Below are positions 15,987 to 24,735 of a stretch of 24,755 nucleotides of DNA, in pieces. Position numbers and translations under genes: made by a program. The stretch lies in the IMG/VR virus record IMGVR_UViG_3300044723_007303, positions 1 to 24,755 of that record; one strand, 5' to 3'. A model generated the notes under the pieces. It was given only the letters and a program-made list of their open reading frames with translations. It searched no databases and was not told where the DNA came from. Positions within the stretch are counted from its first letter, which is position 1. Each line of letters starts with the position of its first letter. The DNA is from a virus (lineage: Duplodnaviria; Caudoviricetes).

Positions 15987-18131
15987 ATGACACCATTTAT
16001 TTCCTCCAGAGTAAGAAAATTAGACGTTGGTATTTCGGGATATACAGATACCGATAGCGTCTTGAATGTTACTGGAAAAGTATCTGTAGGTACTGCAATA
16101 GATTTTGTTCCTTACGATAGTATAAACAACGGGACATTAAGGTTAGAAGGATCTGCTGGTACTTTATTTTCTATCAGTAATAATTTAACAAATGGATCTA
16201 TTTTTTCTGTTAATGATGCAACTGGTGTTCCTAGTTTAGATGTAAATGCAAACGGAACTATTTTATTAGCACCTTTTGGTCAAACAGAATATATTGGTAT
16301 TGGTAAAGTAAATCCAACAGAAAAAGTAGATGTTGAAGGTAGTATAAAATTATCTGGTGATATTTTTATTACTGATAATAACGAATATTCTTACAATATA
16401 CAATTTGTAACTCCGACTAAAGATAGAGAAATAGTAATTCCAGATGCAACTGGTACTGTTGGTTTGGTTGCAGGTTCTACTGGAATGATTCAGTATAATG
16501 ATGCTGGCAAACTTGCTGCAAGTGGAAATTTTGTTTATGCAAATGATAATGTTGGAATCGGAACACAAAGTCCAACAGAGAGTTTGGATATATCTGGAAC
16601 CCAAAATAAGTATATACAAATTACTAGCACAAATTCGCAAAGAACAGGATTATTATTCAGTAATACTTCTCCAGGTGTTGGAAAAATTTATTATAATCAT
16701 GATGATAACACTCTTAGAATTGAAACAAATAGTTTAGAAAGAGTGCGCATCGACGGCTCCGGCAGAGTGGGCATCGGGACGAGTTCTCCAGATGTAACTC
16801 TCCATTTAGGAACTACTCCAGCTGGTGCAGGCAGTGCCGGTGTTATCGGATTTGGAGATATTTCTAATTACAGAGTTGCCGAAATTGAAGGATACCGAGA
16901 GAACGGATCTTTTGCTGGATCACTTATTTTCAAAACCCAACCATCAGTAAGTTCGGGCAGCTCTGGCGCCGAACGAATGCGCATCACCAGCGCTGGCAAC
17001 GTGGGTATTGGGACGAGTAGCCCTGGCACTAATTTCCATCTAAACAACAATCCCTCTTGGGTGGCTCCAACAGGAGGAATCCCCAACAACACACAAGTCT
17101 GGATTTCTTCTAGCACTTTTACGGGACTTGGTATTCAAGGCTCCTCCGCTGGGGCATCTTATGTTTTGTTTAGTGATGAAAATGATGGTGACGTTGGTTA
17201 CATAAGCTATCAGCATACTGACGATTCTTTGCGGTTTGGAGTCAATGCCCAAGAACGCCTGCGCATCGACAGCACTGGCAACGTGGGCATCGGAACAACA
17301 AACCCACAATATAAGTTAGATATTGTAGGAACACTTAGAGTAAGTGAGACCACAAGAATTGGTGATGTAATTGATATTGTTCCTTATGACAATTTAAATA
17401 ATGGTACGCTGTCATTTGAAGGATCTGCTGGTCAGTTATTCTCAATCACAAATAATTTAACTTCTGGTTCTATATTTGCTGTAAATGATGTTTCTGGTAT
17501 TCCAAGTCTTGATATTGATGCAGATGGAACTATAAGTATTTCAGAATTTAGCGGTAATGTATTTTTTGCTGGTCTATCAACAGATACAGTATTTGTTGGA
17601 ACAAATAATAATACAAACACAAATAATTCTAGATTAGTTGTAAATGGTGGAATTTCAGAAACAGTTAATGGCATACAATATCCAGTAGTATCTCAAGTTA
17701 ATATAGGAACAGATCCTAATCAAATACCTTTAAATCAATTCTTGGGAAGCATGGCATTTGCTGATTTCCCATTTTTACAAACAACAACTAGTACTGATGG
17801 CGCAACTGCATCAATTACAGTTAATGCAGAATCAACAGATCTTTATTCACAGATTGCAGATTATACAACCGATGTTGTTTATGATATTTTAAATTTAACT
17901 TCTGGAAGAGAAATAAAATTATATTTAAGAAATACAAATGCTTCTGCAAGAACAATAACAATTAGAGCTTCTGCTACAAATACAGGATTTGCTAATGTAA
18001 ATCTAGCACCTGGAGCAGGAACTATGGGAGCAGCAAGTACTAGTACAATTTCTCTAGCAGCAACATCTGGTACAACACTAATTTACGTAGCAAATATTGG
18101 TGGTAATATTGTTGGAGGAATTCTGGCATGA
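15987..18131 (+). CDS. Modular tail fibre-like protein (714 aa)
   Basis: Five (N/R)VGIGT.SP-type repeats, three preceded by 'ER(M/V/L)RI(D/T)', typical of trimeric phage fibres; duplicated ~60-aa domain; 'IGTDPNQIPLNQFLGSMAF' motif. Confidence 0.8.
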   Translation: MTPFISSRVRKLDVGISGYTDTDSVLNVTGKVSVGTAIDFVPYDSINNGTLRLEGSAGTLFSISNNLTNGSIFSVNDATGVPSLDVNANGTILLAPFGQTEYIGIGKVNPTEKVDVEGSIKLSGDIFITDNNEYSYNIQFVTPTKDREIVIPDATGTVGLVAGSTGMIQYNDAGKLAASGNFVYANDNVGIGTQSPTESLDISGTQNKYIQITSTNSQRTGLLFSNTSPGVGKIYYNHDDNTLRIETNSLERVRIDGSGRVGIGTSSPDVTLHLGTTPAGAGSAGVIGFGDISNYRVAEIEGYRENGSFAGSLIFKTQPSVSSGSSGAERMRITSAGNVGIGTSSPGTNFHLNNNPSWVAPTGGIPNNTQVWISSSTFTGLGIQGSSAGASYVLFSDENDGDVGYISYQHTDDSLRFGVNAQERLRIDSTGNVGIGTTNPQYKLDIVGTLRVSETTRIGDVIDIVPYDNLNNGTLSFEGSAGQLFSITNNLTSGSIFAVNDVSGIPSLDIDADGTISISEFSGNVFFAGLSTDTVFVGTNNNTNTNNSRLVVNGGISETVNGIQYPVVSQVNIGTDPNQIPLNQFLGSMAFADFPFLQTTTSTDGATASITVNAESTDLYSQIADYTTDVVYDILNLTSGREIKLYLRNTNASARTITIRASATNTGFANVNLAPGAGTMGAASTSTISLAATSGTTLIYVANIGGNIVGGILA
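16098..17555 (+). repeat. Intragenic direct repeat of a ~60-aa domain (copies ~16098-16280 and ~17370-17555)
   Basis: IDFVPYDSINNGTLRLEGSAGTLFSISNNLTNGSIFSVNDATGVPSLDV vs IDIVPYDNLNNGTLSFEGSAGQLFSITNNLTSGSIFAVNDVSGIPSLDI. Confidence 0.92.
16737..17305 (+). repeat. Three GC-rich ~55-bp repeats encoding ER.RI..SG.VGIGT..P (~16737-16790, ~16971-17024, ~17252-17305)
   Basis: TGCGCATC in all three (16744, 16978, 17260); CTGGCAACGTGGG in copies 2 and 3; separated by mutually dissimilar spacers of about 60-75 aa. Confidence 0.88.
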
Positions 18132-18321: not shown

Positions 18322-19578
18322 ATGGGCTTGAATATTTTTAATCCGTCAAGCACTAGTGCTCTTCGCGATAATATGTATGGAAATACTAATTCAGGACCAT
18401 CACTAGATTTACAATTTGCAAAATACAAATCTCTTGAAGATTATGTAACTGGTAAGAATTTAATTACATTTACCAGAGGTTCTGCAGCAACTTATGTTGA
18501 TTCTAATGGAGTAATCCAAACTGCTGCTACAGATGAACCACGATTTGATCATGACCCCGTGACTGGTGAAAGTCTGGGGTTGTTGGTTGAAGAGAGTAGG
18601 ACGAATCTGCTAAAGTATAGCTCTGATTTAGTAACAAATTGGGTGCCTGTATTTGCTACGAAAACAGCAACGGCAGCAACAGCGCCAAATGGGGTTTTGG
18701 AAGCAATAAAACTAATGCCGGATGCAACCATAGCGTCACATTATGTGTACCAAACGGTATCTACTGGAGGTGCGTACACCTTCAGCACTTACGTCAAGGC
18801 AGCGGGGTATAACATAGTTTCCTTATATGCCGGCGGGCAATCTTATGCTCGATTCAATTTGGCCACTGGATCGGTAATTGGAGAAAATGCATTTTCATCA
18901 TCTAGGATTGAAAATCTGACTAATGGTTGGTTTAGGATTTCGGCATTTATTGACAACATAGGCGCCTCAGCGCAGTATCGCATCTATGCGTGGGACGATG
19001 CAGATTTTGGCAATTACTCTGGTGACGGCACCTCCGGCATCTACATCTGGGGCGCCCAACTAGAAGCAGGATCCTTTCCAACCTCCTACATCCCAACTAG
19101 CGGATCAACAGTAACCCGTGCTGTTGATGTGGCAAGTATTACGGGGAGTAATTTTAGTAGTTGGTATAACCAGAGTGAAGGGACCATAGTTGCGTCGTTC
19201 CCACAGCAAACATACGCAACAGGTGGTGCAAAAAGAATTCTTTCCTTTGCTAACGATGACATAGATTCTATGTCGGCAGGATCTGGAATTATTTTTGGAA
19301 GTCACACCGGAGGCGTAACTGAACAACGATGGAGAATAAGGGGAGATGTTGTTAGGGGTTTTAGCATTTCTACTGGAATCAATAATACTGGACTTGCTTA
19401 TGCTGCAAATGACTCTGCAATGGTCTTTGATGGTGGAACTGTAGAAACTATAGCAGACGTATCACTTTCTGTATCTTTGGATAGGTTAAAGATATTTCCA
19501 CTTAATGCGAACATCTCCCGCTTCACCTACTTCCCAACCCGCCTCAGTAACGCACTACTTCAAAAACTCACCAAATAA
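18322..19578 (+). CDS. Putative adhesin / spike-fibre protein with carbohydrate-binding-like and LamG/ConA-like domains (418 aa)
   Basis: PSLDLQFA; FTRGSAATYVDSNG; RFDHDPVTGESLGLLVEESRTN; variable beta domain; IWGAQLEAGSFPTSYIPT; TVTRAVDVASITG.NFSSWYNQSEGT; second beta domain; ISRFTYFPTRL. Good SD. Fold assignments are inferred from motif pattern only. Confidence 0.7.
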   Translation: MGLNIFNPSSTSALRDNMYGNTNSGPSLDLQFAKYKSLEDYVTGKNLITFTRGSAATYVDSNGVIQTAATDEPRFDHDPVTGESLGLLVEESRTNLLKYSSDLVTNWVPVFATKTATAATAPNGVLEAIKLMPDATIASHYVYQTVSTGGAYTFSTYVKAAGYNIVSLYAGGQSYARFNLATGSVIGENAFSSSRIENLTNGWFRISAFIDNIGASAQYRIYAWDDADFGNYSGDGTSGIYIWGAQLEAGSFPTSYIPTSGSTVTRAVDVASITGSNFSSWYNQSEGTIVASFPQQTYATGGAKRILSFANDDIDSMSAGSGIIFGSHTGGVTEQRWRIRGDVVRGFSISTGINNTGLAYAANDSAMVFDGGTVETIADVSLSVSLDRLKIFPLNANISRFTYFPTRLSNALLQKLTK

Positions 19579-21511
19579 ATAACAATAACATAACATTTAG
19601 AAGATGGCAACGATATACGGAACAAATAATGATTTTCAAGTTCCATCACTAGACTTAAGGTTTGCTGATCGTAAGAATCTTGTTGATACGATTAGTGGTA
19701 GGAACTTAATCACTTTCAGTCGTAATTCAATTGGAACTTATGTAGATGAGAATGGTGTCATCCAAAGTGCTACGGCTAATGAGGCACGATTTGATCATGA
19801 CCCGGCTACTGGGGAGAGTCTTGGGTTGTTGGTAGAGGAGAGTAGGACGAATGAATTAACTTACAGTGATAAATTATCTCAATCACCATGGGTCCTGTAC
19901 AATTCTACAGGCACCTTAACTCCTAATTCCACTATTGCTCCAGATGATACTAATAGCGCATATTTGTTTACTCCAGACAGTACGACTGGGGCATATATTA
20001 TTAGGTATCCGTTTTCTTTTAATACTGGTATCACTTACACTGTTAGTTGTTTCGTGAAAGCTGCTGGTCGTAGATATGTACATTTGGCTGTTGGGGGGCT
20101 GGCCCTTGGTACTCCAAATTATACATACCGCAGAGGTGTATTTGACCTAGTAGATGGGGTTGTGTACGATCAACCGACAAGTGACATTTCACACCCCGCT
20201 AGCGCCGATATCCAATCATATGGCAATGGGTGGTATAGGTGCAGTTTTACGATTAGAATTGAGCTTGGAGGAAATGCAAATTTTGACATTTATCATGCTG
20301 ACAGTTTAGATCCAACAACTAACAGTGTAAGTGATGGGAATAGTGTTGACGGCATCTACGTCTGGGGAGCTCAACTAGAACAAGGTTCTTTCCCCACCTC
20401 CTACATCCCAACCCCTGCAACCTTCACCAGTCGCGCCTCTAATGCCACGTACTATGACGCCTCTGGTGTTATTCAGACGGCAGGTATTGATGTAGCACGG
20501 GATAATGCTTATTTCCCTGATGAGAATGGCGTGATGCAACCGGCGGGGTTGTTGTTGGAGGGAAGTGGGACTAATTTGGTTACTTATAGTGAGAATTTTA
20601 CCACAAGTGGGTGGTGGGATACTAGCCAAAACAACACAGTAACACCCAATGCCACTGCATCGCCAACAGGAGCAACTGATGCTTCTTTGTTTACTAGCTC
20701 AGGCGGAGGCACGGGATCTTCTTTTGTAAGAAGAACTGGATATTCATTGAGTGGAGCAACATATACTTTGAGCGTATTTGCTAAAGCCGCAAACTCTAGT
20801 ATTATATGGGTTTCAATTTATAACGATGGGTTTAAGTACTTTGATCTAAGCAATGGAACCAAAAGTGGAACTGGAACAGAAATCCAAGAGCTAGTAAATG
20901 GGTGGTACAGATGTTCAGTTACAGCAACGTCTGGACCCTCAAACATTGGAATGGGTCTTTGTGATGCTTTCGGGAGTACAAATTGTACACTAGATGGGTC
21001 AAAAAGTGTTTATTTCTGGGGTGCCCAAATAGAAGAATCCCCCTACCCCACCTCCTACATCCCCACCGCAGGTTCTACCGTCACCCGTGCTGCTGACGTT
21101 AGTAGTAGTTCTACGGTGACAAGGGCGGCGGATGTGGCGAGTATTACTGGGACTAACTTTAGCTCTTGGTATAACCAAAGTGAAGGGACAGCGTTTGCTG
21201 AGTATGATGGTCTTAAAGACTACGCTAGAGTGCTTTTTTTAAATACTAATAAAGTATTCATAACTAGTAGATCAACAATAAATCAAGCATACGATGGCGT
21301 CACAGATATTGCCAGTGTGATCGACCCTCAGATAACACTGGGCGATACAAGAAAATCAGTAACTGCATATAGCGGGACCACTGTCACTCTTACTGTAAGC
21401 GGCCTTATTCCGAATACAGGTAACCTTGACTTTACATCAACAACCAACACTGGGGCATATCTTGGCGGTCAAGGAGGCAGTAGCAACGTCTTAAACGGCC
21501 ACATCTCCCGC
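18539..21511 (+). repeat. Dispersed short exact DNA repeats at domain boundaries of the adhesin paralogs
   Basis: CACGATTTGATCATGACCC at 18539 and 19785; GAGAGTAGGACGAAT in both genes; ACCTCCTACATCCC at 19081, 20396 and 21050; TTGGTATAACCA at 19161 and 21166; ACATCTCCCGC at 19511 and 21501. Confidence 0.9.
19574..19581 (+). promoter_or_regulatory. Late promoter core variant AATAAATA overlapping the stop of the 418-aa gene
   Basis: NATAAATA, 22 nt before ATG 19604. Confidence 0.65.
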
Positions 21512-21568
21512 CTCACGTACTTCCCCGAGCGTTTGCCCGACGCAACTCTTCAGGCAATTACAAGTTGA
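19604..21568 (+). CDS. Paralogous adhesin / spike-fibre protein with one extra module (654 aa)
   Basis: Same conserved blocks as 18322..19578 but two GLL.E...TN / variable / WGAQ.E..PTSYIPT units and a duplicated STVTRAADV. Confidence 0.72.
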   Translation: MATIYGTNNDFQVPSLDLRFADRKNLVDTISGRNLITFSRNSIGTYVDENGVIQSATANEARFDHDPATGESLGLLVEESRTNELTYSDKLSQSPWVLYNSTGTLTPNSTIAPDDTNSAYLFTPDSTTGAYIIRYPFSFNTGITYTVSCFVKAAGRRYVHLAVGGLALGTPNYTYRRGVFDLVDGVVYDQPTSDISHPASADIQSYGNGWYRCSFTIRIELGGNANFDIYHADSLDPTTNSVSDGNSVDGIYVWGAQLEQGSFPTSYIPTPATFTSRASNATYYDASGVIQTAGIDVARDNAYFPDENGVMQPAGLLLEGSGTNLVTYSENFTTSGWWDTSQNNTVTPNATASPTGATDASLFTSSGGGTGSSFVRRTGYSLSGATYTLSVFAKAANSSIIWVSIYNDGFKYFDLSNGTKSGTGTEIQELVNGWYRCSVTATSGPSNIGMGLCDAFGSTNCTLDGSKSVYFWGAQIEESPYPTSYIPTAGSTVTRAADVSSSSTVTRAADVASITGTNFSSWYNQSEGTAFAEYDGLKDYARVLFLNTNKVFITSRSTINQAYDGVTDIASVIDPQITLGDTRKSVTAYSGTTVTLTVSGLIPNTGNLDFTSTTNTGAYLGGQGGSSNVLNGHISRLTYFPERLPDATLQAITS

Positions 21569-23525: not shown

Positions 23526-24328
23526 TGTTAGGATCACATTTTTATAACGAGATTACTCGCAAAAATATTATTGCTTTTGGAACTCTCTTCAATAATATTA
23601 CTTTAAAGAAAAAAGATCCACAAACTGGTGATGTTTTAGAAGAAGAAAAAGTTCCTTTGGCTTATGGTCCAAAGCAAAAGTTTCTTACTAGATTAGAACA
23701 AAATCCAGATGTTGGTAGAAAAGTTGCAATTACTTTGCCACGTTTATATTTTGAGATGACAGGAATTGATTACGATTCAACCCGTAAAACTTCACCAATT
23801 CAAAAATACAAAGCGATCCTTGATGATAATGGTAATGAAGTCAAGGTTCAATATGTTCCTGTTCCTTATAATATGAGTTTTGAACTTGGTATTATTGGAA
23901 AGTCACAAGATGATGCTTTACAAATTATAGAGCAGATTCTACCATATTTCCAACCATCTTTTTCTGTCACTCTTAATATGATTCCAGACATGAATGAAAA
24001 AAGAGATGTTGCAATTGTATTAAACAATATTAACTATGAAGATGAGTGGGACGATAGTTTTTTACAAAGAAGATATATCGTATATACTTTAAACTTTACT
24101 GCTAAAACTTATTTCTACGGACCTTACAGTCAATCTGATGTCATTAGAAAAGCAATTGTCTATGAAACCATTGGAGATCTTAGCGTCAATAGAAGGGCAA
24201 TTGAAAGAACATATACACCTAAAGCACTTACTGATCTTGATGGTGACGGAGACATTGACGCGCAAGATGACGCAATCTTAACAGCAGTTGATGATTTTGG
24301 ATTTAATGAAGGGATTAAATACTTATGA
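23525..24328 (+). CDS. gp15: Tail sheath stabilizer / tail terminator gp15
   Basis: 'FYNEITRKNIIAFGTLFNNI', 'KVPLAYGPKQKFL', 'LPRLYFEMTGIDYDSTRK', 'PVPYN', 'QIIEQILPYFQP'. Confidence 0.94.
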   Translation: MLGSHFYNEITRKNIIAFGTLFNNITLKKKDPQTGDVLEEEKVPLAYGPKQKFLTRLEQNPDVGRKVAITLPRLYFEMTGIDYDSTRKTSPIQKYKAILDDNGNEVKVQYVPVPYNMSFELGIIGKSQDDALQIIEQILPYFQPSFSVTLNMIPDMNEKRDVAIVLNNINYEDEWDDSFLQRRYIVYTLNFTAKTYFYGPYSQSDVIRKAIVYETIGDLSVNRRAIERTYTPKALTDLDGDGDIDAQDDAILTAVDDFGFNEGIKYL

Positions 24329-24735
24329 AACTAGAAGATAATATGGAAGAGATCCTCAATATTAGTGCTGAACCAGTTGAGGAAAGTAAACCGATCAAAC
24401 CAAAACCACCAGAGGTGGATAAGGATGACCGTACAAAAGATTATGAATATACCAGAGGTGAGTTATACAGCCTCATAGATCAGGGTCAGGAGGCGGTCAA
24501 AGGCGCTTTAGAGGTCGCTCAGGAGTCAGGGCACCCAAGAGCGTATGAAGTCGCTGTAGCGGCAATGAAGCACGTTGCAGACATGACTGAGAAACTCCAA
24601 GACCTACATAAGAAGATGAAAGATCTTGATGAAGAGAAGAAAGGTCCAACCAAGGTCACCAACAACGCTATGTTTGTTGGCAGCACTTCTGAACTACAGA
24701 AGATGCTAAAAGAAATGAGCGGCGGCAAAAGATAA
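24325..24735 (+). CDS. gp16: Terminase small subunit gp16
   Basis: 'DYEYTRGELYSLI', 'ALEVAQESGHPRAYEV', 'TNNAMFVGSTSELQKML'; ATGA overlap with gp15. Confidence 0.94.
   Translation: MKLEDNMEEILNISAEPVEESKPIKPKPPEVDKDDRTKDYEYTRGELYSLIDQGQEAVKGALEVAQESGHPRAYEVAVAAMKHVADMTEKLQDLHKKMKDLDEEKKGPTKVTNNAMFVGSTSELQKMLKEMSGGKR

Follow-up and report, generated by a model that had tools for sequence, protein, structure and literature searches.

Mirror-Image Nucleotide Skew at the Borders of Variable Domains in Aquatic Phage Fibre Genes

Introduction

Two paralogous genes, A and B, of the viral record IMGVR_UViG_3300044723_007303 (24,755 nucleotides [nt], analyzed in full and referred to here as the window) contain five variable domains, each preceded by a G-rich entry tract and followed by a C-rich exit tract on the coding strand, with both kinds of tract built from synonymous codon choices. 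The closest described systems are the GRINS of polyketide synthase (PKS) genes, the adhesins of T-even phages, and DoMo in restriction-modification specificity genes. GRINS show a third-position GC skew, a partly correlated TA skew, and abrupt switches from G+T to C+A on one strand, and their skew has been tied to homologous exchange between modules, or gene conversion, with its cause unexplained—strand deamination, according to the authors, failing to account for both skew signs on one strand (PMC8256042, 2021). In gp37/gp38 of T-even phages, hypervariable segments lie between conserved motifs, and exchange ends in or near these motifs without a dedicated recombinase (Trojet et al., 2011, PMC3157838). 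In DoMo, domains laid out as x-(domain)-y, with conserved flanks of 14-53 bp, change position and pass from one locus to another (Furuta et al., 2011, PMC3077401).

Comparison With Described Systems

The phage tracts share with GRINS a third-position skew that is linked to homologous exchange and confined to the exchanged stretches. GRINS, however, are repeats of >500 bp with >80% identity within one cluster (PMC8256042), whereas the phage tracts span 30-100 nt and are shared across a phage pool; the repeats in the window measure 53-210 nt at 66-77% identity, with one 25-nt copy at 92% and a longest exact match of 18 nt. Only 2 of 21 scoring windows have a TA skew above 0.15; at that scale opposite tracts cancel. 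Also unlike GRINS, the phage tracts have a sign set by the side of the variable domain on which they lie, an edge rule that ten PKS GRINS did not show. As a separate observation, L311:783-13948 is a strong, uniformly G/T-skewed GRINS over a modular PKS, with GC skew up to +0.70.

As in the T-even adhesins, conserved motifs alternate with hypervariable segments in the phage modules, and exchanges end in or near the motifs; the proteins are unrelated, however, and in genes A and B it is whole folded domains of 95-160 amino acids that appear to move. Nucleotide polarity goes unmentioned in the available part of the T-even work (PMC3157838), and small g37/g38 samples show none. The changes of position that define DoMo may have counterparts in a 420-nt module of loci L031 and L038 and in the tandem context of domain V1, both of them seen across loci; DoMo differs in concerning bacterial chromosomal genes, and the word skew is absent from PMC3077401. 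Homologous to the scaffold and CBM-like module is the RcGTA head spike fibre Rcc01080 (PDB 6tb9; Pseudomonas phage E217 gp45 and Pa193 gp46), which binds capsule (PMC10218006). Genes A and B differ from it in having a LamG-like domain after the module and in the occurrence of the module as swappable tandem cassettes, with binding predicted.

In operation the system probably parallels T-even shuffling and DoMo, and in appearance it resembles a miniature GRINS. A literature search that covered few subscription papers, and neither the T-even and RecA selection work of 1996-1998 nor the GRINS supplements, yielded no description of a position-determined skew at phage cassette seams. The original prediction, made from the DNA letters of the window, named no earlier description of the polarity; skew tied to gene conversion is already known as GRINS, which went uncited there.

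Polarity of the Tracts in the Window

When the gene that holds each tract was synonymously permuted 2000 times, all ten tracts proved significantly skewed (p 0.0005-0.0065; Table 1), and the gene-wide skew extremes hold after scan correction (p≤0.001), so that all five variable domains obey the polarity, as had been proposed. The base counts originally given for the ten tracts agree with a recount, as do the seven consecutive G-ending codons from 20540 and the ten C-ending codons at 21038-21067. That the skew goes beyond amino-acid composition was borne out by the permutations (p≤0.0065), although amino acids account for ~15-60% of the raw G-C excess (at 19073-19097, -13 was observed against a null of -8.0). 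Other details required correction: the exit tracts begin earlier than first listed, with the strongest exit window of gene A starting at 19025, and the longest exact matches between paralogous tracts measure 9-18 nt, not 14-19 nt. The linkers do depart from the preference for A/T-ending codons, but are not alone in doing so, with third-position GC content (GC3) at 0.34-0.36 throughout genes A and B, compared with a range of 0.12-0.24 for nine of the ten further genes scored. The domains between the tracts are highly diverged, as claimed, with interiors 18-38% identical in protein. At 21097-21130 in gene B, a short TVTRAADV linker is duplicated, the first copy leaning to C and the second being G-rich, a flip of sign.

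Table 1. Genes, predicted variable domains, tracts, and linkers in the window; joints are those described under exchange at the tracts.
Feature	Position	Strand	Remarks
Gene A	18322..19578	+	418 amino acids; N-terminal scaffold, predicted CBM-like module V1, predicted LamG-like module V2
Entry tract 1 (GLLVEESRTN)	18575..18611	+	G-rich; p≤0.0005; joints leave at 18602-18611
V1	18612..19024	+	Predicted CBM-like jelly roll; borders approximate
Exit tract 1 (GIYIWGAQLE..PTSYIPT)	19025..19097	+	C-rich; z -5.0 at 19025; p 0.0065 for 19073-19097; joints rejoin at 19042-19080
Entry tract 2 (NFSSWYNQSEGT)	19119..19184	+	G-rich; p≤0.0005; joints leave at 19178-19184
V2	19185..19494	+	Predicted LamG/ConA-like, laminin-G folds among matches; borders approximate
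Exit tract 2 (ISRFTYFPTRL)	19510..19572	+	C-rich; p≤0.0005
Gene B	19604..21568	+	654 amino acids, paralog of gene A; predicted CBM-like V3 and V4, predicted LamG-like V5
Entry tract of V3	19811..19852	+	G-rich; p 0.003; joints leave at 19840, 19852
V3	19853..20345	+	Variable module; perfect 22-nt inverted repeat 20030-20051 / 20314-20335
Exit tract of V3	20350..20440	+	C-rich; p≤0.0005 for 20392-20428; joints rejoin at 20351, 20389
Entry tract of V4	20540..20575	+	Seven G-ending codons; significant in synonymous-permutation test
V4	20585..21005	+	Variable module, 29-34% identical to V1 and V3; borders approximate
Exit tract of V4	21010..21075	+	Ten C-ending codons; z -5.0 at 21032
Entry tract of V5	21112..21189	+	G-rich; z +4.4 at 21112; joints leave at 21189, 21201
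V5	21190..21490	+	LamG-like by position; 18% identical to V2
Exit tract of V5	21490..21550	+	C-rich; p 0.001; joints rejoin at 21490-21503
ERxRI..GNVGIGT linkers (three)	16737..17305	+	Starts 16737, 16971, 17253; in upstream fibre gene 15987-18131

Recurrence in Homologues and Other Fibre Motifs

Homologues came from 119 viral loci, to which gene A contributed the best 80 of its 421 matches, and from the window itself; skew was scored against each locus's own codon usage. After removal of near-duplicates, 134 CBM-type modules (of 190) and 65 LamG-type modules (of 89) were kept, with a profile coverage of at least 75% required of CBM modules and of at least 90% required of LamG modules; the sets of ERxRI linkers, chaperone junctions, and other LamG cassettes were de-duplicated likewise. 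Entry 1 was G-skewed in 124/134 CBM-type modules and exit 1 C-skewed in 119/134, while entry 2 and exit 2 each showed the predicted skew in 63/65 LamG-type modules, so that homologues do share the polarity, whose absence from them would have counted against the original prediction; conserved interior motifs were unskewed (79/134, 70/134, and 72/134). An unbiased window scan gave the same picture: of 195 extreme windows at the four tracts, all but one (194) carried the predicted sign. The skew is present in all contig GC classes and is retained in a divergent subfamily. In 32 GTDB modules the polarity is the same but weaker.

At fourfold third positions, entry 1 and exit 1 mirror each other (A.15, C.10, G.48, T.26 and A.28, C.47, G.10, T.15, respectively). 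Third-position G-C amounts to +0.54, -0.65, +0.14, and -0.57 at the four tract types; T-A runs in the same direction (+0.25, -0.35, +0.45, and -0.04) but is weak in two, and interiors stand at about -0.17 and +0.18. The inward strand, first described as GT-rich, gains mainly G and not T. Codon choice flips with the skew for every amino acid: for Pro, CCG/CCC frequencies are.38/.09 at entry and.12/.51 at exit, and for Gln, CAG (.65) prevails at entry and CAA (.71) at exit. Moreover, the C excess extends 30 nt beyond the stop codon (-0.28 and -0.30, n=64; 635 other genes, -0.01 and -0.10).

The polarity is not confined to this family. In an unrelated fibre linker, ERxRI..GNVGIGT, a C-rich half (177/219) is followed by a G-rich half (149/219), and a second, partly overlapping sample gave 32/37 and 27/37. 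The fibre-to-chaperone junction, the chaperone presumably being of the type labelled S74, is C-rich in 66/73 cases, a sign predicted beforehand, with G avoided at Leu, Lys, and Glu. Another LamG cassette shows a positive entry in 12/14 and 11/14 and a negative exit in 12/14. Overall, all nine tracts scored in four motif families show the predicted sign, and the G-entry/C-exit polarity is confirmed as real and recurrent in aquatic phage fibre genes. It is not a universal rule, and a gene-agnostic boundary test gave a weak result (other motifs, +0.14 in 94/160 and -0.47 in 89/151; similar-flank controls, -0.17 and -0.25). Further C-rich fibre motifs were seen at the left end of shared stretches in L138, L177, L192, L199, and L173; among such left-end motifs, GDISFYEDTG was positive in 0/6 and FGDNDKAIFG in 0/6.

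Exchange at the Tracts

Contigs have 24-43% of 18-mers in common at three of the tracts (entry 1, exit 1, entry 2) and 13-14% at the fourth, exit 2, but ≤5% in interiors. Two ACG-2014j isolates with flanks 97-98% identical carry different domains and have islands of 32 and 36 nt in common at the exits, and ACG-2014j and S-WAM2 have 39-nt islands in common at both entry and exit. Whole modules are also 92-97% alike between otherwise different genes (L031/L038, L056/L076, and L092/L107), that of L031/L038 (95%) lying at different offsets. Internal ends of ≥90% matches fall within 15 codons of a motif centre in 61 of 136 cases, compared with 14% expected, the pairs not being independent.

In four marine studies, 12 of the 15 joints listed, out of 26—joints to other phages at 90% likeness and with short sides—depart from a G tract and re-enter at a C tract; runs X2-X5 possibly include the source sample or a single campaign. 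Interiors had little or no cover in four marine runs, and since such a hole is no proof by itself, only joints and pieces were counted. In estuary runs, contigs that differ in depth and context carry V1 at ~98-99% identity, the shared piece ending at 18530/18591 and 19075-19076; one such context is a tandem arrangement, and three of five joints span V5. Short contigs from far more abundant phages (depth about 800-1750, as against about 33) match 18530-18600 and 21133-21189 at ≥95%, suggesting a community-wide tract pool. By these sequence comparisons, the tracts are seams of domain exchange between genes and between phages, and mosaic ends, whose random placement would have refuted the original prediction, map to them, with replaced and shared domains ending there. 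A role of the skew in driving the exchange is not implied. The exit island common to cultured Synechococcus phages contains an inward E. coli-type Chi octamer (L283:10537-10568, L284:12803-12844, and L286:10382-10420).

Origin of the Skew

The tract signal lies at the level of nucleic acid because the codon flips follow skew, not optimality, and because the C excess passes the stop codon. Translational tuning, in which slow codons at entry and fast codons at exit would pace domain folding, therefore has hardly any probability: entry tracts do use AGG/CGG, TTG, and GGG and exit tracts TAC, ATC, GGC, and CGC, but the skew persists into non-coding DNA and across contig GC classes, and Pro, Gln, Leu, Val, and Ala follow it against the expectation from high-GC optimality.

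The explanation tentatively favoured here, although its prospects fall somewhat short of even, is that the mirror-image skew is a by-product of directional homologous recombination at the seams. A break inside or beside a domain would be resected, so that the strand entering the domain in 5′ to 3′ direction, which is the top strand at entry and the bottom strand at exit, would become a single-stranded 3′ tail. This tail would pair with any donor that has the same tract, whether paralogous or co-infecting, from which the domain would then be copied in, a dedicated recombinase being unnecessary for such cassette exchange. Over repeated rounds, strand-specific mutation or biased retention of mismatches would raise G and lower C on the invading strand, and pool-wide homogenization would maintain the resulting skew, the whole amounting to a very short, sign-predictable GRINS-like process. 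Three considerations, namely RecA filament stability (PMC3763553), the mismatch tolerance of G, and single-strand deamination, suggest that the G-rich strand is the single-stranded invading tail. A by-product is favoured because the skew tracks membership of the tract pool, has no motif of its own, extends into non-coding DNA, and looks like that of GRINS, and it is at least as likely as selection because a skew tied to gene conversion has already been described in GRINS. In detail, no word is common to the tracts, whose mean codon identity is just 0.43-0.47; CBM modules outside the main tract pool are weakly skewed (8/13 and 13/19); and a faint gradient of the same direction runs within the CBM module (+0.06 to -0.04).

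In the main rival reading, an extension of the original prediction, the skew may instead have been selected, as G-rich inward 3′ tails that load or hold RecA/UvsX better, tolerate mismatches with diverged donors, or act as a degenerate Chi and so raise recombination, which we regard as unlikely but worth serious weight. At low RecA, TGG repeats give the most stable filaments and CCA repeats the least stable (PMC3763553), yet TGG counts in the tracts match the expectation from their codon usage (129/125, 389/375, 116/112, and 134/131), and neither TTG repeats nor Chi gained in nucleation in that article. ViennaRNA DNA energies rank G as the best and C as the worst invading base, although the mismatch model fits entry 1 poorly. 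E. coli Chi points inward in 25 of 134 exit-1 tracts and outward in none (null 8-10; rank 4 of 4325 octamers), and recBCD is present in marine Synechococcus and Prochlorococcus (PMC5101192), but Chi is unenriched in the other five tract types. An oriented Chi/RecBCD word in every tract was rejected, the word being enriched in exit 1 alone and absent from the window. In favour of selection, synonymous sites are better conserved in tracts (0.41-0.49) than in interior motifs (0.34-0.39). In its full form, selection would have produced an evolved, enzyme-free cassette code in which inward G-rich strands of silent codons bracket every swappable host-binding domain. These strands would serve as degenerate signals of a recombinase-loading or Chi-like kind, through which unrelated aquatic phages could trade domains from a common pool. 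This form is doubtful; if it is true, seams and the invading strand could be read from the sign directly in the sequence, and the sign switches of GRINS would be explained. Structural readings, in which entry pairs with exit in single-stranded DNA or mRNA and loops the domain out, or in which the tracts form a G-quadruplex (G4), an R-loop boundary, or a junction hairpin, are improbable, and those raised at the outset, G4 and pairing, gained little from folding, pairing, and G-run tests. Entry 1 and exit 1 of the same module do pair slightly better, at -9.1 against -8.1 for cross pairs and -8.5 for base shuffles, and correlate in strength (rho -0.58), but entry 2 and exit 2 show no such gain (p 0.22; rho 0.04), and the chaperone junction has a C tract with no G partner seen in the 60 codons upstream. 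Whereas 57/134 exit-1 tracts reach a G4Hunter-like 1.2, four GGG runs occur in 0/132, 14/134, 0/65, and 4/65 tracts; hairpins were found neither at 65 junctions (p 0.07 and 0.16) nor at 110 of the 199 ERxRI linkers, the number covered (p>0.7), and self-structure is significantly reduced in exit 2 alone (p 0.02). A frozen accident, with one ancestral tract spread by concerted evolution and its skew incidental, would account for most tracts falling in one linked cluster, for the weak skew of CBM outliers, and for the several families without the rule; it is very improbable given the nine tracts in four motif families, the same skew carried by different codons, and the skew kept by the divergent subfamily.

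Several observations weigh against the by-product explanation. Tracts are non-independent, with the largest cluster holding 113 of 131-134, so that column z-values overstate certainty; other motif clusters have the expected sign in 37/69 and 44/78 cases, which is not significant; four non-redundant T-even gp38 sequences from 14 loci show no pattern; and a C-rich left edge occurs in none of the 10 PKS GRINS from 3 loci (a test that covered 47 duplicated tracts in 17/95 loci). The LamG interior has no gradient, and the inward strand has a purine content of 0.59-0.76, compared with about 0.47, which transitions alone do not yield. Break sites and the invading strand are deduced, and outward-pointing C-rich donor tails would produce the same map. 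Motif-bound ends, moreover, are no proof of a link between skew and recombination because homology and fold constraints predict them. Finally, neither toy model fits all four tracts, and the toy models (mismatch tolerance, GC-only, and transitions-only) failed to discriminate. In four phage fibre motifs, the position of a tract predicts the sign of its skew, and since such tracts are short enough to be recoded, they open the link between recombination and strand skew to direct testing. From single sequences, the signature may also reveal swap seams in the fibre genes of uncultured phages.

The Window, Its Host, and Other Features

The window is a fragment (24.8 kb; ~13% complete) of an AT-rich T4-like phage, as shown by a gp8 match, and its closest DNA matches are Synechococcus myoviruses, which points to a Synechococcus-type cyanobacterium as the probable host. 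Genes A and B match phrog_5939 (tail) with E 8e-90 and, in three stretches, E 1e-118, respectively, and gene A matches Rcc01080 over scaffold and CBM-like module (E 4e-32; profile 9e-66). A Pfam search of both genes gave no match; CBM_4_9 was found in 3/55 homologues. In the predicted structure of gene A, two beta domains are modelled with confidence and are joined by low-confidence linkers at the positions of the tracts, and its weak fold matches include CBM4/CBM61 and laminin-G folds. Atlas features of V2 match PF13385 clusters at 0.98, the family being annotated on 41% and 15% of members. The variable modules are predicted from homology and fold to be sugar-binding domains, and a role in receptor specificity is likewise predicted.

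With regard to an invertase shufflon or a DGR with template repeat and reverse transcriptase, the window contains no long near-identical repeat, and no dedicated recombinase was seen in it, no search having been aimed at a recombinase or reverse transcriptase in this partial record. The arms of the inverted repeat in V3 lie 262 nt apart and in different frames; an inverted repeat of at least 13 nt occurs in 1/134 modules, so that the V3 repeat is not a family trait and is possibly a one-off template switch. An invertase shufflon acting through this repeat seems unlikely, as inversion breaks the open reading frame, with stops from residue 151.

In the upstream fibre gene, the C-rich halves of the three ERxRI linkers have z -1.8, -4.4, and -3.9 and the following halves z +1.5, +2.7, and -0.6, the latter being G-rich in two of three. 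The stretch 16700-17330 is a GC-rich island, flanked by these linkers, in an otherwise AT-rich gene, which also has a 173-nt internal repeat (16089/17361, 74%). The last gene, at 24325-24735, has a GC3 of 0.45, well over that of neighbouring genes.

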